In this document: piece by piece, positions 2,220-55,179 of the stretch | Layout of the letters: each line of letters opens with the position of its first letter | Numbering within the stretch: the first letter of the stretch is position 1 | NCBI RefSeq assembly: GCF_902148845.1 | Contig: NC_043762.1 | Coordinates: 28,962,760-29,026,759 of the forward strand | DNA from: Salarias fasciatus | Lineage: Eukaryota | DNA: 64,000 nucleotides | Direction of reading: 5' to 3' | Position numbers and translations under genes: made by a program | The notes under the pieces: model-generated | Told to the model about the DNA's origin: nothing | The model's database searches: none | What the model saw: only the letters and a program-made list of their open reading frames with translations

Positions 2220-3154
2220 CTGGAAGAGGAGATTGATGACTTCAACCAACAAAACAATGATGAAAAGCCAACTCACTTAAATCTTGCAGTAACCTTTGAC
2301 CTGAAGCTTGTTTACACTGAACGTTTGTCCTGATAAAATCATCACAAAGCTGATTTCTACCTCTAAATGCCTCAAAACGAGAAAACAGCAACAGCGTCGC
2401 CCAGTGCCGAATGAGACTGCAACGTGTGTTTGAAATATAAAATCTAATGGGGAAGTCATGGGATTTGAAATTTTAAATTAAGCCAAGCCTTGCAGAATGA
2501 AAGTACGAGATTAAAAATGCACTGATTTGTCTGTAAAAACGAGGGTTTAGTTTATAGCAACAGCCTGAGCAGCAGTGGATTTACTGCTACACAAGAACAA
2601 CTGGAGACCACAGCTGATCCACTCTGAAGACGTTCAGTCAAAGTTAAGGTCTCCCACATTTCATCTGTGGAACATAAATTCCGCCCCCCTAAACAAAAAA
2701 AGAACAGAATAATAGAGGTACTTCCGTTGGCGTCCACTGACGTGTGGCCTCACTGTCATTTGAGAAGGAGCTCATGACCCGTTAGTGAACACACACACAA
2801 AATCCCAGGCTGCTTTTACACTGTTTGAAGACCTTATTCAGACAAAGACATATGTTCTTTAAAATCATGAAGACAAACTGAGAGCAGAGGTTTCAGAGCC
2901 ACTTGTTGTGGGTGAGGGGGGCTGCTGGTGCCCCGGGGGGGTGTTTCTGCCCCGGAGCGCCCTGCAGGGTGACACGGCCGTGGTGACAACATTAGATCTC
3001 TCAGTGATCCTAAATGAACCAGAAATCCACTTGGCTCACACACTGAGAGAGAAGTGTGTGTGTTCGTGGTGGTAAGGTCACACAGAGGGTGTGTGTCCAA
3101 TAATGAAAGTTTCCTCTCAGCCCGAGAGGAAAACAGGAACACGGAGACACTCAC

Positions 3155-3208
3155 AGAGACGTTTCCCTCCTCACACTCCAGGTCCAGGTCCAGATCATCG
3201 TATCGATC
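3155..3208 (-). CDS. Exon of unidentified gene: DRYDDLDLDLECEEGNVS
   Basis: Acceptor tttccacag|GATCGA and donor gtctct|gtgagt. Confidence 0.4.
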
Positions 3209-3399
3209 CTGTGGAAACATCAGTCTGACGTTAGAAGAGGAGGACGGATCAAACCGACGCTTCGACCGGATCCGCTCTCGGTGAAACTCCAGCCTTTATC
3301 TCACCATCGAACCAGCGGCTCCGAACCCCTTCACAGGAAGTTATTCCGCAGATGAGCAGGGATTAGAGGATAAATGTGGGTATAAAGGTGAACCCCGGG

Positions 3400-5760: not shown

Positions 5761-6080
5761 TGCTCAAAGGTGGAGACTCCACTGTGGTCAGGAGCGGAGT
5801 GCGACCAGCCTGCTTTCAGGCCATCTTACCCGGCCCAGATGTCCCAAAGTAAATGTGGAATTTCCATGGAAAATCAAGCACCCGAGTGTCTCGTTCCATT
5901 GTTGAAGCAGATAAGTTCCCAGAGATTTGCCATTTCCTCTAAGAAACCCAGGCTGACTCCTTCGATCAGCATCAGAGAGGCCTCAAGCCTTTCCCAACTG
6001 GCAGCGGCGGGATTTGAACCCACACCTCCTGAGAGACTGGAACCTGAATCCAGCGCTTTGGACCGCTCGGCCACACTACC
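5759..6080 (-). mobile_element. tRNA-Leu(CAG)-headed SINE, copy 1
   Basis: Reverse complement of 5995-6078 is ggtagtgtggccgagcggtccaaagcgctggattcaggttccagtctc...gtgggttcaaatcccgccgctgcc, a cloverleaf with a CAG anticodon. A roughly 250-bp body is shared with 49679-50005. Confidence 0.5.
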
Positions 6081-6225
6081 TGCAGGACCCAAGCCTCAAT
6101 GTTCATCCAGCCTGCAAGTGGCAACTGGCCAAGGCTGCAAGAACAAACAAGGACTGATCTATTTTTTGGAACAGGAACCAAGAAGCCTGTGAGCAAGCAG
6201 TGGTGTGTGCCAAGAGAGTCCCCAG

Positions 6226-6297
6226 TAGCAGAGGACGGTTTCGATCCATCGGCCTCTGGGTTATGGGCCCGGCACGCTCCCACTGCGCCACTCTGCT
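6226..6297 (-). tRNA. tRNA-iMet-like sequence; probably a pseudogene or SINE head rather than a functional gene
   Basis: Reverse complement is agcagagtggcgcagtgggagcgtgccgggcccataacccagaggccgatggatcgaaaccgtcctctgcta, about 90% identical to vertebrate initiator tRNA-Met. It has a C-A mismatch in the anticodon stem. Confidence 0.4.
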
Positions 6298-8019: not shown

Positions 8020-9400
8020 AGTATTTAGTTAGTATAGTTTAGATAGTTTAGTTTAGTTTAATTTAGTTTAGTTTAGTTTAGAATCCCTAGCTGACCTGAT
8101 CATAGGCTGCATCGAAGAGAAACATCTTGAGCCAAACCTTAAATGTGGAGACTGTGTCTGCCTCTTTGACACCACTTGGAAGCTGGTTCCATAAAAACGG
8201 TGCCTGATAGCTAAAGGCTCTTCCACCTAGTGTCCATTCAGAGACTCTAGGAGTCACCAGTAACCCTGCATTTTGAGAGCGAAGTGCACTGATTGGTTGA
8301 TAAGGCGTTAAAGCATCTTGGAGATAGGTCGGAGCCATCCCATTTAGGATTTTGTAAGTGAGGAGAAGGATTTTAAATCTAACTCTAAACTCGACAGGAA
8401 GCCAGTGAAGAGATTTTAGAACGGGAGTAATGTGTTCACGTCTTCTAGTTCCGGTTAATAATCTGGCGGCCGCATTTTGAACCAACTGAAAGTTTTTTAA
8501 TGCACTTTTTGGGCAGGCTGCAAGAAGGGAGTTGCAGTAGTCCAGTCTAGTAGAAACAAATGCATGGATGAGTTTTTCTGCATCGCTTCTAGGTAGAATG
8601 TTTCTTATTTTAGCTGTGTTGCGCAAGTGGAATATGCTGTTTTACAAGCCAGGTTGATGTGTGCTTTAAAGGAGATATCCTGATCAAATAAGACCCCGAG
8701 GTTCCTGACAGTAGAGGAGGAGGATACACTGACGTTATCTAAGGTGATAATCTGTTCAGACAGACACTCTCTCAGTTTATGGGGGCCTAGTATAATGACC
8801 TCTGTTTTGCCAGGATTAAGACGGAGATAGTTCGTAGTCATCCAGGATTTAATTTCTCTGATACAGTCACTGAGTCTGTCTATTTGATTAGTTTGATCAG
8901 GTTTCATAGATAAATACAGTTGTGTGTCATCTGCATAACAATGAAAATTGATATCGTGACTTCTAATTATGTTCCCTAAAGGAAGCATATACAGCAGAAA
9001 TAAAATTGGCCCGAGCACGGACCCTTGAGGAACCCCATAACTGACCTGGGAGCACGGTGAGGACTGTTGGTTAACGTGAACAAATTGGTACCTATTAGAT
9101 AAATAGGATTTGAACCAGCAGAGGGCTTTTCCTCTGGTGCCAACCTCACATTCTAACCTCTGCAGGAGAATATTGTGGTCAATTGTATCAAAAGCTGCAC
9201 TGAGGTCTAAGAGAACCAGGATTGAGGCGAGACCTGCGTCAGCCGCCAATAGCAAGTCATTAGTGACTTTAACTAACACAGTCTCAGTGCTGTGATAAGC
9301 TCTATATCCTGACTGAAATTTCTCAAATAAACTGTTGTCCTGTAGGTGGCGGCAAAGCTGTTTAACCACGACTTTTTCCAGGACTTTTGAAATAAAAGGC
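8020..9400 (-). mobile_element. L2/CR1-like LINE copy (RT plus C-terminal region) with a (TAAAC/GTTTA)n-type 3' tail
   Basis: Minus ORFs 8605-9369 (...GYRAYHSTETVLVKV...LLDLSAAFDTIDH...[13 protein letters not shown]...) and 8087-8626 (...RLDYCNSLL...). Tail gtttagtttagtttaatttagtttag at 8020-8087. Confidence 0.65.
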
Positions 9401-9698
9401 AGATTTGATATCGGTCTGTAGTTGGCTAGAATATCAGGATCAAGATTAGAGTGGACTGCCTTGGTTCCGAGACTTACTCAATGGTGGAGATTTCACTCAA
9501 ACAGGACTTTTTCGACCTGCTTTCAGTTGGAAGTGTCCCAGCCATCCAACTTTGTCAACATGGTCAACCACAGACGTTGTGTGCTCCAGATGTCCTCAAT
9601 GTCTTCCAATCCATGTGGTGTCCAAGGTCATATCCACGACCATGGCTTACTACTTCAAGTCAAACGTGTCCACGCTGTCGTGTGCTTTTTCCACAGGT

Positions 9699-9771
9699 GT
9701 TTCCGTAGTGTAGTGGTCATCATGTTCATCTCACACATGAAAGGTCCCCTGGTCGAAACAGGGCGGAAACA
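9699..9771 (+). tRNA. tRNA-Val(CAC)-like pseudogene or SINE head with CpG-to-TpG/CpA decay
   Basis: gtttccgtagtgtagtggtcatcatgttcatctcacacatgaaaggtcccctggtcgaaacagggcggaaaca against canonical tRNA-Val ...ggttatcacgttcgcctcacacgcgaaaggtccccggttcgaaaccgggc.... Every difference is at a CpG, and one T is missing from the T-loop. Confidence 0.4.
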
Positions 9772-10149
9772 TCCAGGTGTGCCTAAACGCCACCTGCGTT
9801 TTCGGTTGATGGCCTTTGACTCTAATCTGTGGGGCTTTGAAGGAGGCTGTCAGCTGAGACACTCCTGCTTCCTAATGGCCAGCCCTTGCGGACATTGAGG
9901 CGCAGTGTGAATTTCACAATGGAATGTCGCGCTTGATATGATGGACTGGAATTGATGATGTCTGCTGTTCATGCTGTAGAGCCAGAAGACATCTACCAAA
10001 GATGAGCCATGAGTTATAGCAGCACAAACCCCTTTCACTCGCAACTCGATGAACTTCATGCCACCCCTGAACTCCCAGCATGCAATGCAGCAACCAAAAC
10101 ACAAATGGCGAACCCCTGGGTGGCTACAATATGGAATAATTCCAGTTCA

Positions 10150-11657: not shown

Positions 11658-11777
11658 TCACTCTTTCCAGGAGAGAATGTAGACCAGGCCGTATCCATCA
11701 CCACAGACCAGCTCAGTGGGTTTTGCTGGATTTACTTCCAAAACCAGAACCGGTCCTTTACACACAAACATGCCCAC
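11658..11777 (-). CDS. tep1: TEP1 terminal coding exon VGMFVCKGPVLVLEVNPAKPTELVCGDGYGLVYILSWKE with TGA stop
   Basis: Acceptor cctttag|GTGGGC, in phase with the previous exon. Matches the human C-terminus LLGLFRCEGSVSCLEPWLGANSTLQLAVGDVQGNVYFLNWE*. Confidence 0.65.
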   Translation of the reverse strand: MGMFVCKGPVLVLEVNPAKPTELVCGDGYGLVYILSWKE

Positions 11778-12000
11778 CTAAAGGAAGAATTCACACACAG
11801 GGTAATGTTATTTTTGGGGTATTTACCTTTATGAAACTTGAGTAGAAAATAGTTTAATTTGATTTGATTTGTTGATTCAGAGGTAACTGAATTCCTGTTC
11901 ATTTACTTCACTTCCTTAATCTGCAATTGCACACATTTCACTGCATGTTGCACCTCTGGACAATAACAGCTCTCTTGTTGCACGACCGTGATGAAGTACC

Positions 12001-12105
12001 TGTTTCTTGGAGCTGCGGTCCCACAGCTTCACTGTGCGGTCGAGGGAAGCTGAGATGATGGTGGTGTCAGTCAGTCTCAGCTGAGTGATCCTGTCACTGT
12101 GAACC
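12001..12105 (-). CDS. tep1: TEP1 penultimate WD40 exon VHSDRITQLRLTDTTIISASLDRTVKLWDRSSKKQ
   Basis: Acceptor caattgtcag|GTTCAC and donor aaacag|gtactt. Matches TEP1 IHSGSVTALHVLPELLVTASKDRDVKLWERPSMQ. Confidence 0.65.
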
Positions 12106-12681: not shown

Positions 12682-12767
12682 CCAGTTTTTTGTTGCTCCA
12701 CGAGAAAAGCTCAGGAGGCAGATTAAACCACATGTTGCCCTCCATGTCACCGCACACCACAAATTCT
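12682..12767 (-). CDS. tep1: TEP1 exon EFVVCGDMEGNMWFNLPPELFSWSNKKL
   Basis: Acceptor tttctgtcag|AATTTG and donor aaactg|gtaaga. Phase 1 to 0, consistent with its neighbours. No clear human counterpart. Confidence 0.4.
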
Positions 12768-15590: not shown

Positions 15591-16258
15591 GGAAGAGTCC
15601 CCTTTGGAGACACAATGAGGGATGCTGTGGCCTATGGCTCAACCTTGGGCATGCATTCCAGGCCGGCTTCAGCTGCACCATGCATGGCCACCAGTGCTCG
15701 GCTGTCGACTAAAACTCTGAAGGAACCGTGCTATCCCTCCAGTAAGAATGCAGCTTCCTGAAGAAGTCCTCTGGGGGAGGGACAGCAAATGCAGAGGGGT
15801 ACTGGGACTGCCTGCACTGGAAGAAGGCAAGAAGGTGTGTCTGCCATCGCAGCCTTGGAGGGCAAACTTCGCTGCTCCGACCAACACAGTCGTAAGGCTA
15901 CCAGCAATGAAGTATGATGCCATATCGGCAAGACCCATTATCTTCAAAACTGTAGTTTACTGTCGCCGGCGACACTCAAGAAGAAAAGAGGAACCGAACC
16001 TGTGGTGACACCAGAACGTATTACCTTTCAGGGGTCACCCAGGGGTCACAGGCTGGTATGAATACAACAACTGTACATGCGCAAAGAGAACATTTCACGC
16101 TTTCAGCACCGACTTCTGGCAGTCAGTAGGAATGAAATAGAATTTCCAAAGATCCTTTTTTCAGTCTTACGTGGAACTGAATGGATTTTTTCCCCCGAAG
16201 TTTTTTGTTTCTTGAGAACAAATAGTTGAGAAATTAAATTGAAGTAAATAGTAAATAC

Positions 16259-16793
16259 CTCTGTCCTTTGTTAGAGCAGTTATGAGGCTCCCCCCCTTCT
16301 TCAGCTCCTTCTGCTCCTCCTCATCTTCTTCCTCCTCATCCTCTTCGTTCCACTTCTCCTGGTTCTCCTGCTCCTCCTCATTCTCCTCCTGGTTCTGCTC
16401 ATCATCATTCTTTTGGCTCTGCTTCTCCTCATTCTTCTTCTGTTCCTGATGTCCTGTCATGTTCTGCTTCTTCTCATCTTCCTCCTGATGCTCCAGCTCC
16501 TCCTCCTCCTTCTCTTCCTGACTCTCCACCTTTTCATTCTTCTCATTTTCTTGCAGTTGTGAGAGCTTCTCCTCCTCATCCTCCATGTTTTCATCTTTCT
16601 GATCTTCCTCTGCTTTCTTTACCTTCTCTTCCTCCAACTTTTCTTCCTCCTCCTCCTTCTCATCAGTCTTCTCTTCCTCCTCATCACCTTCCTGCTCCTC
16701 CTCTTCCTCATCCTCCTTCACACACCTATCAGCCTCCTTCAGAGTGATTGAGCTGAATCCTGAACTGTGTCTTCCTTTGGAGCCCATGTTGAA
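16259..16793 (-). CDS. tep1: TEP1 exon encoding a greatly expanded Glu/Lys/Gln-rich acidic linker (FNMGSKGRHSSGFSSITLKEADRCVKEDEEEEE...EEEQKELKKGGSLITALTKDR)
   Basis: Acceptor ctcttgcag|TTCAAC and donor gacagag|gtattt; 535 nt in one open frame. Phase is continuous with the next exon (12682-12767). It sits where human TEP1 has ...TGNMWQKKANTPETQ...ESDASMDSDASMDSEPTP, and the starts (FNMGSKGR vs GNMWQKK) align. Confidence 0.45.
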
Positions 16794-17086
16794 CTGCAAG
16801 AGAGGACAAAGTCATGTTTCTCTAAAAACAGCCGTTAGTTTTGATTTGGAGATTCAGAAAAGATGCTCCTAAAGAAAAGTAGAACAAAGCAGAATTTTTC
16901 AGTGTGTGAAGCTTCAACTATATGAAGGAGCCTGTGATTGCAAGTCTAATTGAAGCTGATGTGTCTTATTGGGAAACTTGTAAAACAGGAATACATTCCC
17001 CCGAGACAGTGGAGATTATTGAACTATTTAGTTGAGGTTGACCAACAACATTAAGGTGTTACAGTCAAAGTAAAACTCACCAAGAA

Positions 17087-17180
17087 GCCGATGGTAACAT
17101 TTCCGTCTTCTTCACCGAGCAGCCACGCACTATTGCTGTCTTTACGGATTACAGCATGGATACGAAAAGTGAAGCGCCAG
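17087..17180 (-). CDS. tep1: Probable TEP1 exon WRFTFRIHAVIRKDSNSAWLLGEEDGNVTIGFL
   Basis: Acceptor cattttaag|CTGGCGC and donor cttcttg|gtgagt. The peptide is WD-like. Confidence 0.4.
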
Positions 17181-18586
17181 CTTAAAATGAAAAAACACAC
17201 ACAGAGGTGTTTTCCTGAACGATGCAAATTCTTGAATGTACCATTATTACACATATACAAAGACATTTAATTAACAACGTGTGCTGTTGTAAATGTTTGC
17301 TGCATTCAACAATTCTAAAAATGGTTTACTCTGAATTTCCACTTCAAAAACTCAAGCTCTCTGGAATGCATAATTCCCCTTTTAAACCTCATCATGTCAC
17401 TGCTGTATCCCATTGAACTGGTTATATAAAGTAATTTGACAATCCATGGCCAGTGTTTCAAAACAAAATTAAAATGTTTTCATTCTCACACAAAAAAAAT
17501 CTGTTTCAGAAGCTAAAAGGTTGTGATTAGGTTACAATATCACTAAAGCATGAGCTTTTAATGATTTCCATTCTGCTGCTTTGGGGTTTTCTTGAATATA
17601 AACTCACTCTGTGATCACATGATCCCGTCTGTCGCTCATGTCAAGTGAGACCTCGGATAACCATCCACAGGAGGACACCCCCAGCAGTACTGAGCAGTAG
17701 AAGAGGTGCTGCACTTCCTCTTTCGCTTTGTAGGAGGTCACCTTCACCAGGCTGCAAGGAACAAACACAGAACAAGCAAACTCTCACCCAGTTTAACACG
17801 GACGCAAGATCTAATTATTAAACTTTTTCAGCAAGCAGCACCATGTTGGTTCTGCATTGAAGTAAAGCTCAAAGTTGTGCATTATGTCTGCAATACACAA
17901 CTGCCTGCAATGTGTATTTAAGACTGTAATTATTTTCAGGACAAAAAGATTGATTTTGACTTCATGTGAGACAGGTTGAGGCATCTAGTTTGTGACTGAA
18001 TGCTTGTACAGAAGTCCCAGGGTTCACCGTCATTAGTTGTATATATATATCAGCACAAAGCTCCAGTGGGGAACATTTTTTTTTTTTTTCAGTTTTTGAA
18101 TTATTTTGAGGTGAAAATGGGTGTAGGATAAGGGGATAAGGATTACACCTGGAATATCCTGTCACAGGAGAAAGAACAAGAATGGAAGGGTCATTTTAGG
18201 ATTCTGAGTTACACTTCTGGTGGTAGTTGCAGGGACAGTATATGAGAGCAATGTTTAAACATTTTCAAGAATGGCGAAAATAATTGAGGATCCAGGACGA
18301 CGTAAAGTTGTGCCCCATTGCGACTTAGTTTTGGACTTTTGTGGAAACAAAATTCAGTGATGTGGGTTCAACAGTCTTGCTAAAATGGACATTATGGAAA
18401 CTGCAAATACAGTAGTATTTGGTGAAATTAGATAGCCTTCTGTAATACAGAGAGTACACTGAACTATCTGGACTCAGGTCACATCTGAACATAAATCAAG
18501 GCTGTGATTTTTAGGTAAAGAAAGGTTTTAGAGTAAGATTAGATTGACCACAAAGAAGAGAGATGTCAGAACTCTGATATTTACCT

Positions 18587-45934: not shown

Positions 45935-46050
45935 CTGTAGGAGAGTAAAGGTTTAGGCAGTGGTCACTTTTAGCAGAAGTGACAGTGAACCTTTCTGAAG
46001 CCAAGTCGATCAATTTTCAATTTTTCATGTTTAATCTTCTGATAGATTTA

Positions 46051-46240
46051 CCATGAAGAGAGTTTTGCCCTCTCCAGCTCCTCCTTCCACCACCATCATG
46101 TGCCCCTTGGTCTGCAGCTGCTCCACCATCTCCACAGCAGCTGACAGCAGCTTGGACCTGCCAAAGAACTGCCTCTGTAGCGCCCCCTGGTGGACCTCCT
46201 GCTCATTAACCTCTGCTGCCTCCTCACGCTCCTCAGACGC
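46051..46240 (-). CDS. tep1: TEP1 NACHT exon with the Walker A P-loop: ...EVNEQEVHQGALQRQFFGRSKLLSAAVEMVEQLQTKGHMMVVEGGAGEGKTLFM
   Basis: Acceptor cttcatcgcag|GCGTCTG and donor ttcatg|gtaaat. GGAGEGKT is a P-loop, paralleling TEP1 VTGQSGQGKTAFLA. Confidence 0.7.
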
Positions 46241-46450
46241 CTGCGATGAAGAACAAATGGCTCAGTGGACTTTAAAGAGCTGCGATTAATTAAATACCAA
46301 ACAATAGTTCATATTGCACTGTTCTTGACATTAACAACTGTTTGCCAATATTTGAGGCAGAAACTGGAATAGAACAAAAAAAAAGCTAAATGGTACGACT
46401 TTTGATTATTTTGAAGGATTCTCATCAGTACATGTTCAGAGTGACTCACA

Positions 46451-49678: not shown

Positions 49679-50005
49679 TCAAAGGTGGAGACTCCGCTCT
49701 GATCAGCCTGCTTTCAGGCCATCTTACCCGGCCCAGATATCCCAAAGTTCATGTTGACTTTTCATGGAAATTCAAGCACCCAAGAGTCTCGTGCCATTGT
49801 TGAAGCAGCAGACAAGTTCCACAGGTGCTGCCAGGTTTGAAGTCGACTGGGCTTTGCCGTTTCCCCAACACACCTTGGCTGACTCAGTGTCAGAGAAGCC
49901 TGGAAAGGCTTCAAAACTGACAGTGGCGGGATTTGAACCCACGCCTCCTGAGAGACTGGAACCTGAATCAAGCGCCTTGGACCACTCGGTCACACTACCT
50001 GCTTT
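49679..50005 (-). mobile_element. tRNA-Leu(CAG)-headed SINE, copy 2
   Basis: Same head (49920-50000) and body as copy 1 (...ctgctttcaggccatcttacccggcccagat.tcccaaagt...), in the same orientation. Confidence 0.5.
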
Positions 50006-50175
50006 GAGCAGTGCATTATGACAACATCGCTCAGTACAATTTCATGTTCAACCTTTATAAAACACATTTTCTGAGTGAGATTGAGTCAAACTAACAGAAT
50101 TATAGATTAGGGTCGCAGTGGGGTTCGCACACAGCTCCACTTAATACTGCTTTAACTATTTTTCAGAAGTCTTAC

Positions 50176-50467
50176 CCAGCTGTACTGCGGCAGATCAGGA
50201 AGGGCAGGCCGATCGGGCACCTGGCCGTACCTCTCTCCCAGGATTCCCACCAGGATCTGGCTGCGACACACCTCCGACAGGCACAGCTCGGTGGCCCGCT
50301 CCGACTCCTCCTCCGTCACACCCCAGCGCAGTTCCACCTCCTGCAGGTAAAGGCAGTGTGGTGCGGCACGGCGGCGAAGCTCTGGAAAGACGCTCTGCAC
50401 CAAGACGTCTCGCTCAGAGTGCATGTCCCTGAAGGTGGAGGAGATGAACACCCGCACACCTTTCCAC
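50176..50467 (-). CDS. tep1: TEP1 exon encoding DUF4062: [97 protein letters not shown]
   Basis: Acceptor ggtttccag|GTGGAAAGG and donor cagctgg|gtaaga. Matches TEP1 [84 protein letters not shown]. Confidence 0.7.
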
Positions 50468-50640
50468 CTGGAAACCAACAAATGAGCCCAGGTTACACAA
50501 CCTGTGACCCACAATTAAGAAAAGTGTATCAATACACTGATGATGATCACTACTGCTGCACATGTGAGTCTTGAAGTCAGCCAGCTAACCAACGAGATGG
50601 ACACATCCTAAGTTTTGTATATCTTCTTTGAAGAAAGTAT

Positions 50641-52199: not shown

Positions 52200-54143
52200 A
52201 AATCAAGAGATAATAATAATAATAATAATGAATTTTATTTATCATGCACTTTACATTTGTAAAACAAATCTCAAAGTGCTACAATGGAATTTAAAAACAA
52301 CAGTGACAATTAAAAGTAACAGATACAGGCTAAATCAATAAAAAACTCTCATACTTTTGCACGTCATAAAATACAACAAAGTACAGTAAAATCATTCAAA
52401 CGCTTTCACAAACAAAAACATTTTTAAGCAAGATTTAAATAAGTCCACCGACTGTGGTGCCCTCAGGTGGGCAGGTAGGGCATTCCACAGTCGGGGTGCT
52501 GCAGCCTGAAAAGCCCTGTCCCCCATGGAACACAGTTTGGTTTTGGGGACCTTTAGCAAGTTGATGTCGGCGGAGCGGAGGCGTCTGGTCGGGTCGTGTG
52601 GGGAGAGAAGTTCTTTTAGGTACACTGGTGCACTACCATAGACACACTGATGGGTCAGGAGGCAGATTTTGTATTCCAGCCTGAACCTTATCGGGAGCCA
52701 GTGAAGGTTATGGAGAATGGGAGTGATATGGTGTCTTTTTGGCACCCTCATCAGGATCCTGGCAGCACAGTTCTGGATCGACTGAAGCCGTTGTAGGCTT
52801 CTTCCAGAGATCCCGATGAGGAGTGCATTGCAGTAGTCCAGCCTGGAGGAGACAAAAGCATGGACCAGCTTCTCAGCAACGGGGAGGGAGAGGACGGGGC
52901 GTAGTTTGGAGATGTTCCGGAGGTGAAAAAATGAGGTCTTACAGATGTGTTGGATATGGAGGTCAAAGGAGAGGGTGGGGTCAAAGCGGACACCCAGGTT
53001 GGTAACGGCAGTTGTTGGGTTGATTTTGTGGCTGGCAAATGATAGGACTGTGAAAGGGGAGGACTTAAGTTGATGTGGAGTTCCAATTAATAGAAATTCA
53101 GTTTTGGAGCTGTTGAGCTGGAGAAAATTGTCATTCATCCATGCTTTAGTCTCCTCCAGGCAGGCGGTGAGTGATTGGATAGCAAGGGAGGAGGTCCGGT
53201 CCAGCCTGACATAGAGCTGAGTATCATCAGCATAGCAATGGTAGGAGACTCCATGCCTGCTGATGGTGTGGCCCAAAGGGAGCATGTAGATGGAGAACAG
53301 GCTAGGCCCCAGCACTGACCCCTGGGGAACCCCACAGGTGACAGCGTCGGACCTCGACCTGGCTTCCCCAAGGGCGACTTACTCAGCCCGACCAGTCAGG
53401 TAGGACCGGAACCACTGGAGCACTGTATCTGAAAGACCAATGAAATGCTGGAGTCTGTGGAGGAGGATGGAGTGGTCAACAGTGTCGAAGGCGGCTTAGA
53501 GGTCCAGGAGTAACAGGAGTGATGGAGAGCCCTGGTCAGAGGCCACCAGCAAATCGTTGGTGACCCTGACCAGAGCTGTCTCAGTGCTGTGAGCTGAACG
53601 GAAACCGGATTGGAATTTGTCGTACAGATGGGAGGACTGGAGATGTGTGTGAATTTGAGAGGAGACTACCTTTTCAATGATTTTTGACAGGAAGGGAAGA
53701 TTGGAAATGGGCCAGTAATTAGATGTTTTTTCAGGGTCAAGGGAGGGTTTTTTGAGAAGTGGTTTAATTATTGCATTTTTCAATGACTGTGGCAGGTGAC
53801 CGTGTTGCAGGGAGTGATTGATGATAGTTGTGATTAGGGGGCTCAGTGTGGAAACATGGGATTTGATCAGGGATGTGGGAAGTGGATCCAGGTGACAGGT
53901 GGAGGGCCTCATCTTGCGGATGACGTCCTCCACCTGTCTGTCTGTGACAGGGAAAAACTGGGAAAATTTGGAAGCTGGAGTGGCAGGTGTGGAGTTAGGA
54001 GAACTAGAGGGCAGGAGAGCAGAACGAATGTTATCAATCTTGGATATGAATGTATCCAAGAATGCATCACATTGTTCGTTATTGTTTGTTTTTTGTGTAA
54101 GTGGTTGTGGTGCGAGAAGTTTGTTTACAGTTTTAAAACTCAA
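52200..54143 (-). mobile_element. Second copy of the L2/CR1-like LINE (RT region), in a TEP1 intron, with a (TAA)n tail
   Basis: Minus ORFs 53496-54143 (...[23 protein letters not shown]...LLLLLDL) and 52392-53315 (...[14 protein letters not shown]...[10 protein letters not shown]...). (TAA)7 at 52213-52232. Confidence 0.65.
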
Positions 54144-54184
54144 AGATGGTGACAGAGACAGAGCCTGACCTTCATTTGCTTGAC

Positions 54185-54350
54185 CACAGTTCTCACGTTA
54201 TCCAAAAGGACATCAGACTTCAGCTCCACTTCTTCACAGTGACCGGAATCCACTAAGCAAAGCTGACAATCTTCTGCACTGCTCCTGATCAACAGTGCAA
54301 CCAAAGCAGCCACCTCCTCCAACTGTGAGGGTATCAGCATGAGGCAAGTT
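54185..54350 (-). CDS. tep1: TEP1 exon ...[53 protein letters not shown]
   Basis: Matches TEP1 NYALLLIGMMITRAEQVDVVLCGGDTLKTAVLKAEEGILKTAIKLQAQ. Confidence 0.45.
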
Positions 54351-54539
54351 GAATCATTTCGTTGGTTTGAGACAAAAGAGAAACAGCACAATCACTCACC
54401 GAGGGCCTGAGAGTGTCTTTCTGTTCAACGGTTTTCCGTCTATTGTTGTAACGGCCCTCATTGTCCTTTTTGTCTTTTTGCTCTGGGTCTGGAGGAAGGC
54501 AGAAGTCTTGTTTTTCAAGCCAGCTCGGAAACTGATACA

Positions 54540-54680
54540 TTCCTGAGGAGAGAAGGATGACTGTCCGTCCAGGGAGCGGGGGCAGGTTGTAACGGCAGGA
54601 GATCTGAACCGCTGTCTCCAGAGCTTTACGGTAACGGTCCAGCAGAGCCACGGTGAACACCTTCTCCCTGCGAGTAGACA
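54540..54680 (-). CDS. tep1: TEP1 exon ...VFTVALLDRYRKALETAVQISCRYNLPPLPGRTVILLSSGMYQFPS (vWA-like part of TROVE)
   Basis: Near-colinear with TEP1 EMLNRYRQALETAVNLSVKHSLPLLPGRTVLVYLTDANAD. Confidence 0.6.
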
Positions 54681-55179
54681 TATGGAGCGAATTCAACACA
54701 CAGAATCAAAATTGTATTTCATTTTCTTTCAACTACCGTAGTGCTAATTCTTCAGGGAATGTAAAAGAAAACTCACACAATAGACTCCTGTGGGACTTTA
54801 TTTATAACTCGTGTTGAAAATGTTAAAATGATGACTGAACTCTGATCCACTGTCTGTGGGATGGAACCAATTGTCAAATGTTTCTGGACGGTTGTTGTTT
54901 GTGTGCTGGGTGTCTCGTAGGGAAGAACTGTGCCACTCAGCCCCAGACTGTGTTTATTGGCTGATAAAGGACAGACAGCTAACACGTCAAAAGGAAAATG
55001 TTATGGTTGGGGTTTCAGTGGCTGCTATTATTCTTAGACACTGGAAAACCTCCAAAGTCCTGCAGCCTAAAGAATGGGGAAACATGATGATAAAGACTGC
55101 TTCATATGAACCTTTGCTGTTGGGAGTCGGGGATGGAGACACAACACCAGACTGGGAACGTTTCGGCCTGATGTTACTG

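Follow-up and report, generated by a model that had tools for sequence, protein, structure and literature searches.

Is a long run of glutamate, lysine and glutamine codons in a fish genome a genuine protein-coding exon, and how could a WD40 protein accommodate the acidic stretch that it would encode? The question is raised by a locus of Salarias fasciatus in a 64,000-nt stretch of NC_043762.1 (GCF_902148845.1, positions 28,962,760-29,026,759), which was analysed at its full length and is called the window below; all coordinates are those of the window. A preliminary description of this DNA had placed a single 535-nt open exon, here exon A, in the C-terminal part of TEP1, and had explained it either as a lineage-specific disordered expansion, possibly grown by slippage of GAR (GAA/GAG) triplets, or as a mis-joined low-complexity reading frame. 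TEP1, or telomerase-associated protein 1, is a minor vault protein of TROVE-NACHT-WD40 architecture. Vault RNA depends on it for its stability, and the presumed location of TEP1 is at the vault caps (PMC3216873). The reading developed here, to which we assign a probability of about 0.8, is that exon A is a real tep1 exon bearing a lineage-specific low-complexity expansion of an inter-blade connector, which grew by slippage and is tolerated as an appendage.

The tep1 gene and its exon A

The tep1 gene is read from the minus strand and extends from about 61.8 kb to 11.66 kb. TROVE (PF05731) scores 59.9 bits (cutoff 23) at 59797-60216, minus strand, with a second fragment matching at 54337-54705, minus strand, and DUF4062 (PF13271) scores 53.8 bits (cutoff 24.7) at 50155-50514, minus strand. 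A P-loop, GGAGEGKT, lies within 46034-46261 on the minus strand; the match to AAA_30 is weak, and the NACHT model found no match in a Pfam scan of the ORF fragments of the window. The WD40 exons are spread over 35.7-11.7 kb, and the spliced C-terminal model matches Beta-prop_TEP1_C (PF25048) with 118.3 bits (cutoff 32). Furthermore, 32 colinear tblastn segments on the minus strand cover residues 256-2617 of full-length TEP1 from the characiform Acnodon, and the top database matches carry the name TEP1 or the name telomerase protein component 1. Together with the homologous ends of exon A described below, these domains and this colinear orthology support the earlier assignment of the exon to the C-terminal WD40 region of TEP1.

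Several other features of the window were recorded. tRNA-Leu(CAG) is matched at 5999-6080 (minus, downstream of tep1) and at 49918-49999 (minus, in a tep1 intron beside the DUF4062 exon), both times in similar flanking sequence, which suggests either dispersed tRNA genes or a repeat of tRNA origin. There are also matches to tRNA-Met(CAT) and tRNA-Val(CAC), the latter by ARAGORN alone, and the remaining tRNA coordinates are 6225-6297 (minus) and 9698-9775 (plus). Long minus-strand ORFs at 8090-9477 and 52395-54197 contain reverse-transcriptase-like motifs (...YADDTQLY...) and are probably LINE fragments, the second within a tep1 intron. (CA)n/(TG)n microsatellites at about 56.6, 58.5, 60.3 and 22.6-22.7 kb appear as HTHTHT/CVCVCV runs in ORF translations, and an intron rich in repeats contains poly-G and poly-A runs. 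Downstream of tep1, a 153-residue open frame at 2837-3295 (minus) includes an acidic patch, ...RYDDLDLDLECEEGNVS..., and may belong to a neighbouring gene.

The C-terminal exon chain around exon A, with the parts of this exon, is as follows.

17608-17751, minus strand: exon U, 144 nt, ...LVKVTSYKAKEEVQHLFYCSVLLGVSSCGWLSEVSLDMSDRRDHVIT; donor GTGAGT, leaves 2 nt
17081-17180, minus strand: exon X, 100 nt, (D)WRFTFRIHAVIRKDSNSAWLLGEEDGNVTIGFL; acceptor tttcattttaag, donor GTGAGT, returns the phase to 0
16794-16838, minus strand: acceptor region of exon A, with AG at 16795-16794, polypyrimidine tract ctttgtcctctctt and a CTAAC branch-point consensus at 16834-16838
16259-16793, minus strand: exon A, tep1 coding exon by open frame, splice signals, phase and homology, 535 nt = 178 codons + 1 nt
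16716-16793, minus strand: conserved 5′ flank of exon A, FNMGSKGRHSSGFSSITLKEADRCVK; end of strand c, c-d loop and outer strand d of a WD40 blade
16314-16715, minus strand: acidic low-complexity core of exon A, 134 codons; D+E 72, K+R 18, abundant Q and N
16259-16313, minus strand: conserved 3′ flank of exon A, QKELKKGGSLITALTKDR(E); strand a of the next blade and a-b turn
16253-16258, minus strand: donor GTATTT of exon A, with GT at 16258-16257, GACAGAG/gtatttact; junction KDR/E-FVVCGD fixed by homology
12683-12765, minus strand: exon D, 83 nt, (E)FVVCGDMEGNMWFNLPPELFSWSNKKL; strands b and c of the next blade, takes 1 nt from exon A
12000-12104, minus strand: exon F, VHSDRITQLRLTDTTIISASLDRTVKLWDRSSKKQ; the Pfam Beta-prop_TEP1_C match begins here
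11658-11777, minus strand: last coding exon, VGMFVCKGPVLVLEVNPAKPTELVCGDGYGLVYILSWKE and stop codon (coding 11777-11661)

Exon A lies in an ORF spanning 16170-16811 on the minus strand, and one frame is open over all 535 nt, as the preliminary description had it. The exon begins in phase 0, and its final G forms a Glu codon with AA of the next exon. Its length of about 178 residues was likewise confirmed, but the statement that they are almost entirely E, K, Q, D and N is too strong for the whole exon, in which these residues (63, 25, 16, 13 and 11, in the order E, K, Q, D, N) make up 72%; in the 134-codon core they reach 86%, with D+E at 54% and K+R at 13%. An exact-sequence look-up of the 206-aa and 210-aa ORF products matched no record.

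The region of exon A is the strongest strand-skew outlier of the window, its top kilobase (GC skew -0.29, AT skew -0.26), the minus strand being purine-rich. Purine-rich strands hold few stops, and TRF finds period-3 arrays here; exon A might accordingly be supposed to be the remnant of an intronic purine-rich microsatellite, open by chance and mis-joined, or a repeat inflated by an assembly artefact. Only 3 of 20,000 dinucleotide-preserving shuffles of exon A remain open in the coding frame (69 of 20,000 for the core alone), so that openness is improbable even given the composition and is not a by-product of purine richness. The two other sense frames contain 7 and 19 stops. The Fourier power at period 3 is 27 times the mean; codon position 2 is 74% A, and T is rare, with half of it at position 3. 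In addition, the strands encoded at the two ends of exon A are present in every orthologue between the counterparts of X and D, the phases fit X and D, and joining X to D without exon A is out of frame. As for the assembly, the repeats are too imperfect for inflation by an assembler, the longest exact repeat being 17 nt. We regard a chance frame or artefact as extremely improbable, and the mis-joined ORF of the preliminary description is rejected.

The acceptor junction of exon A reads ...gactttgtcctctcttgcag/TTCAACATG (intron side also ...ctttgtcctctcttgcag), with the CTAAC consensus 41 nt upstream. Of the two splice sites, both of which had been called good, the acceptor is strong and has this branch point, while the donor is only moderate, with +4 and +5 non-consensus. 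The boundaries at 16259 and 16793 are nevertheless exactly those that the reading frame and homology require. It is conceivable that part of the tract is spliced out as an exitron, or that an acceptor inside the exon is used, which would leave a real loop much shorter than 140 residues; exon A is indeed unusually long for tep1, and its donor is not strong. Exon A, however, holds only 10 GT dinucleotides and has neither a GTRAG nor 7 or more pyrimidines in a row, the outer acceptor is strong with its branch point, and both flanks are required in frame. Such trimming is therefore very unlikely.

When the best splice sites are used, the joined translation of U, X, A and D is stop-free, and the phases agree along the chain, U leaving 2 nt, X returning the phase to 0, A leaving 1 nt and D supplying 2 nt. 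Since 535 is not a multiple of 3, an X-to-D join is out of frame, which implies that exon A is constitutive. Judged by its sequence, exon A thus belongs to the constitutive coding part of tep1.

Two other joins were considered and discarded. Exon U can be joined directly to the acidic exon in frame through a weak donor, CAT/GTGATC at 17618, but orthologues have 33 extra residues between U and A; exon X, identified in this interval, goes with the strong GTGAGT donor of U. The weak in-frame alternative donor in exon U (17608-17624, minus), which would skip exon X, is a gene-modelling trap and an unlikely isoform, since X encodes three strands of a blade. A gar TEP1 fragment (P0003) has almost nothing between U and D. 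Exon X is missing from this model, as is a portion of exon A, and the regions of both exons are present in a second gar-like model (P0022) and in all teleosts.

Position of the insertion and loop length in other fishes

For comparison, TEP1 C-termini of many fishes were gathered by word-indexed protein searches and an exhaustive HMMER search, and the protein search was rerun without the acidic core, since the core drew Glu-rich candidates. One orthologue, P0005, is encoded by a Logan contig of 1251 nt (run SRR19345899), which is contiguous over seven exons that are separate in the window, ends in a 3′UTR with AATAAA and has 37 residues at the site of exon A. This contig is a spliced mRNA of another fish in the short form.

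The start of exon A, also read as FNMGSKGRHSSGFSSITLKEAD, aligns with TEP1 orthologues, namely with FAMGPKSHLNQAMGTVLLEAD of P0005, FFMGPKWDLSSAFSKL of Micropterus and FAMGAQTDVYSSCGDIEL of Umbra at its 5′ end, and the 3′ flank aligns with KRSLITAVTVDKG of Micropterus, KDCMLIAATMNRD of P0005 and GGWITAVTVKRD of Umbra. Across the 3′ junction, KKGGSLITALTKDR/E-FVVCGDMEGNMWF of the window corresponds to KRSLITAVTVDK/G-FVVSGDVRGNMWF and KDCMLIAATMNR/D-LVVCGDMKGNMWF. Both ends of exon A are therefore conserved in the alignments, and the insertion is restricted to the middle. Short-loop TEP1 of P0005, Micropterus, Thalassophryne, Umbra, Megalops, Coryphaenoides, Gymnothorax, Polyodon and Erpetoichthys has the same exon and flanks, and shares with the window F-x-M-G ... 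S-S-x-F-S ... L on one side and [SW]-[LI]-I-T-A ... D-[RK] on the other. In these orthologues, the insertion point is occupied by a small D/E/K patch, and the exon equivalent has 32-43 residues with a loop of about 5-20. The lengths of the exon A equivalent are as follows.

Twelve ray-finned fishes: 32-43 residues
Acnodon: 56 residues
Metynnis: 58 residues, counted by hand
Hoplias malabaricus: 120 residues
The window: 178 residues

The inter-blade loop thus measures about 140 residues in the window against about 5-20 in short-form ray-finned orthologues. This comparison with related fishes, which the preliminary description had proposed as a check, shows that orthologues carry the flanking strands of exon A between X and D with a short loop, and, since the window has 178 codons where twelve other ray-finned fishes have 32-43, it bears out a lineage-specific expansion.

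A PDB sequence search returned generic WD40 proteins only and no TEP1 structure, and the fold was modelled by AlphaFold2 on P0005 with a 17-sequence alignment (mean pLDDT 86.5, pTM 0.81). One blade of this model consists of the strands RVLAMIRND, SMWLVGVS, QVNIGFIF and NQAMGTVL, and the next opens with LIAATMN, LVVCGD and NMWFI. Between strands 138-145 and 158-164 lies the connector LEADEEEKKDCM, residues 146-157, which has the lowest local pLDDT (67-72). According to this strand mapping, exon A encodes the last part of strand c, then the outer strand d, the connector between the blades and strand a, and exon X, to which tblastn assigns P0005 residues 91-128 (17194-17081), strands a-c of the blade completed by exon A. 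On the model and the alignments, the expansion is confined to the d-to-a inter-blade connector of the last beta-propeller.

Origin and character of the acidic tract

The earlier suggestion of GAR slippage fits the data in part. A pure GAR microsatellite expansion was rejected; there are no long uninterrupted triplet runs, the longest GAR run being 5 codons, and the TRF arrays in the tract are imperfect, with 66-80% matches at period 3 and 72-77% at periods 21 and 24. Repeated 12-mers are not above the codon-shuffled expectation, and repeated 9-mers are marginally above it (31 of 2000 shuffles reach the observed value). Two observations agree with slippage. First, relatives have at the insertion point a short purine-rich seed, D-E-E-E-K-K, which the P0005 mRNA contig encodes by GAT GAA GAG GAG AAG AAA; GAG GCY GAT preceding this seed is common to the relative's contig and the window. 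Second, the confamilial serrasalmids Acnodon and Metynnis differ at this patch by two extra residues (Glu codons) in a longer Glu run. From the composition, the seed and this length difference we infer a slippage origin, of which the direct repeat signal in the sequence is weak. In our reading, the tract is a degenerate purine-rich low-complexity region, old and cryptic, and not a young microsatellite.

An ancestral short purine-rich patch encoding D-E-E-E-K-K would then have been the starting point of the tract, which may have grown via many small in-frame events of replication slippage or short tandem duplication in GAR/AAR codons, and point substitutions would later have degraded the repeats into a cryptic low-complexity region. 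During this decay, the frame would have stayed open because frameshifts were selected against, as a frameshift would cost the last two and a half blades. The product would be a polyanionic, non-globular appendage on the propeller rim that leaves the fold undisturbed; WD repeats would tolerate length changes in precisely this variable segment, and the effect on TEP1 function would probably be neutral or mild.

What the loop looks like is less easily predicted. The product of exon A has a net charge of about -48 and matched no family in a Pfam scan, and the core combines a net charge per residue of -0.40 and a fraction of charged residues of 0.67 with low hydrophobicity. These values lie within the high-charge/low-hydrophobicity range of polyanionic disordered regions, and the orthologous short loop is where pLDDT is locally lowest. 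The proposal of a disordered expansion was nonetheless not borne out by single-sequence AlphaFold2, which draws exon A alone as one long helix (residues 18-167, pLDDT 85-94, pTM 0.36), a prediction to be treated with caution, since such sequences often yield it. Because both ends of the loop are held in adjacent strands, a straight helix of about 150 residues, or 22 nm, is excluded; a flexible coil or a loose helical hairpin is possible. An ER/K single alpha-helix was also considered. The core shares with polyanionic disordered regions and ER/K helices the high charge, the low hydrophobicity and the predicted helical tendency, but ER/K helices balance E against K/R, whereas K+R makes up only 13% of the core, whose D+E (72) and K+R (18) are far from balanced, which does not fit this candidate. 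Judged from sequence, the loop is probably a tolerated polyanionic appendage.

Recurrent acidic tracts in TEP1 and comparison with WD repeats

The expansion is lineage-specific, as had been proposed, yet it is recurrent rather than unique. The RefSeq model of Hoplias malabaricus tep1 (XP_066536272.1, P0021) has 120 residues (D+E 40) in the same exon and a strongly acidic, low-complexity tract in the same loop, between ...FFDLFL and ...VCITAAAMDQGFIVCGD. Its extra residues stand at the identical point, where two BLASTP segments break at P0005 residues 149-155. The Hoplias tract is shorter and made of E/P/H/C/K units (EEPxEEP...), in contrast to the E/K/Q/N tract of the window, and Hoplias belongs to the otophysan lineage, its flanks differing from the acanthomorph-like flanks of the window. 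Because composition and lineage both differ, the two expansions are taken to be independent.

In tetrapod TEP1, a low-complexity acidic insertion occupies another loop on the surface of the last propeller, not more than about 30 residues from the fish site. In the snake Micrurus corallinus (P0008), the one tetrapod compared, the next loop contains an acidic tract of 61 residues that stands between GDSEGFLW and KRKIHCDTITALH. This tract follows strand c and precedes the KRKIH...ITALH strand, whereas its counterpart in the window is an ordinary 15-residue segment, NLPPELFSWSNKKLV, encoded by exon D and the start of exon F. The human linker ESDASMDSDASMDSEPTP (ESDASMDS...) presumably directly precedes ...RQRRKIHSGSVTALH, as in the snake; the linker string gave 0 matches in a full-text literature search. 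The preliminary description had put the human linker at the position of exon A, which does not hold, as the snake tract lies one loop further C-terminal, where we take the human linker to lie as well. The fish expansion is therefore a neighbour of these tracts and not positionally homologous to them.

Elasmobranchs have tracts near the site, slightly further N-terminal, with about 300 residues of D/N/Q/E/R repeats in the ray Narcine and about 50 residues in the shark Heterodontus. BLASTP aligns these proteins only from the GD..G.LW strand onwards, and MAFFT puts the tracts N-terminal of the GF.F strand. In TEP1 of Narcine bancroftii (P0158 cluster, XP_069796905-17), the tract is a nearly perfect tandem array of D/N/Q/E/R/S/G units and immediately precedes the last blades; ten isoforms of 2329-2862 residues are annotated, perhaps because the repeat or its vicinity is alternatively spliced. 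In the moray eel Gymnothorax javanicus (P0016), a WD40 loop nearer the N-terminus, preceding ...LVTGSEDSRLRVWRR, holds a further repeat, about 280 residues long and rich in E/S/G. Since this repeat lies in another loop, TEP1 has more than one hot spot of acidic expansion; the moray-type hot spot is also used in P0038 and has no counterpart in the window, where the loop is short (...VVVETKKEKTEVLVFSGSDQRL, about 31.0-31.3 kb, minus).

The same anatomy admits another evolutionary reading, namely that the acidic loop is a selected functional module, either a nucleic-acid mimic that competes with vault or telomerase RNA at TROVE, a site for a basic partner or a charged helical spacer. In its favour, acidic tracts arose repeatedly nearby, in the same loop of Hoplias, in the next loop of Micrurus, and in Narcine and Heterodontus; these expansions are all net acidic though their residues differ, the frame of exon A stayed open while its repeats degenerated, and AlphaFold2 predicts a high helical propensity. 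Most fishes, however, manage with 5-20 residues in this loop, and length and composition vary freely among lineages, as predicted by neutral low-complexity drift seeded by purine codons. For a helical spacer, moreover, the ratio of K+R to D+E is 1:4, unlike that of ER/K single-alpha-helix motifs, and anchorage of the loop ends in adjacent strands makes a straight 150-residue helix geometrically impossible. We consider selection for such a module unlikely. A broader form of this idea, in which acidic appendages on the rim of the last TEP1 propeller were convergently selected in vertebrates as an RNA mimic or as an electrostatic regulator of RNA binding or vault-cap docking, would span the same loop (the window and Hoplias), the next loop (squamates and human) and nearby positions (elasmobranchs). 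It is a speculation that we hold to be quite improbable; if it were true, Salarias fasciatus would carry one of the largest teleost versions.

The preferred reading, that of a real exon with a tolerated, slippage-grown connector, has a value for annotation, because a suspicious purine-rich ORF becomes a genuine tep1 exon and the exon chain of the C-terminal propeller is fixed in the window. Beyond this, two or three adjacent loops of the last propeller of TEP1 repeatedly inflate into acidic tracts, a pattern that seems undescribed; a full-text literature search gave nothing on acidic expansion of these loops. If the tracts were functional, they would give access to what the WD40 region of TEP1 does in vaults, and if they are neutral, they provide a clean example of WD40 inter-blade connectors absorbing large insertions.

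The closest known parallel is the WD repeat itself, in which the segment from the WD dipeptide to the GH of the next repeat varies from about 6 to 94 residues. The insertion of the window sits exactly in this variable segment and leaves the flanking strands and the GD..G..W signature intact, but with about 150 residues between the strands it exceeds the classical range, and its composition is extreme.
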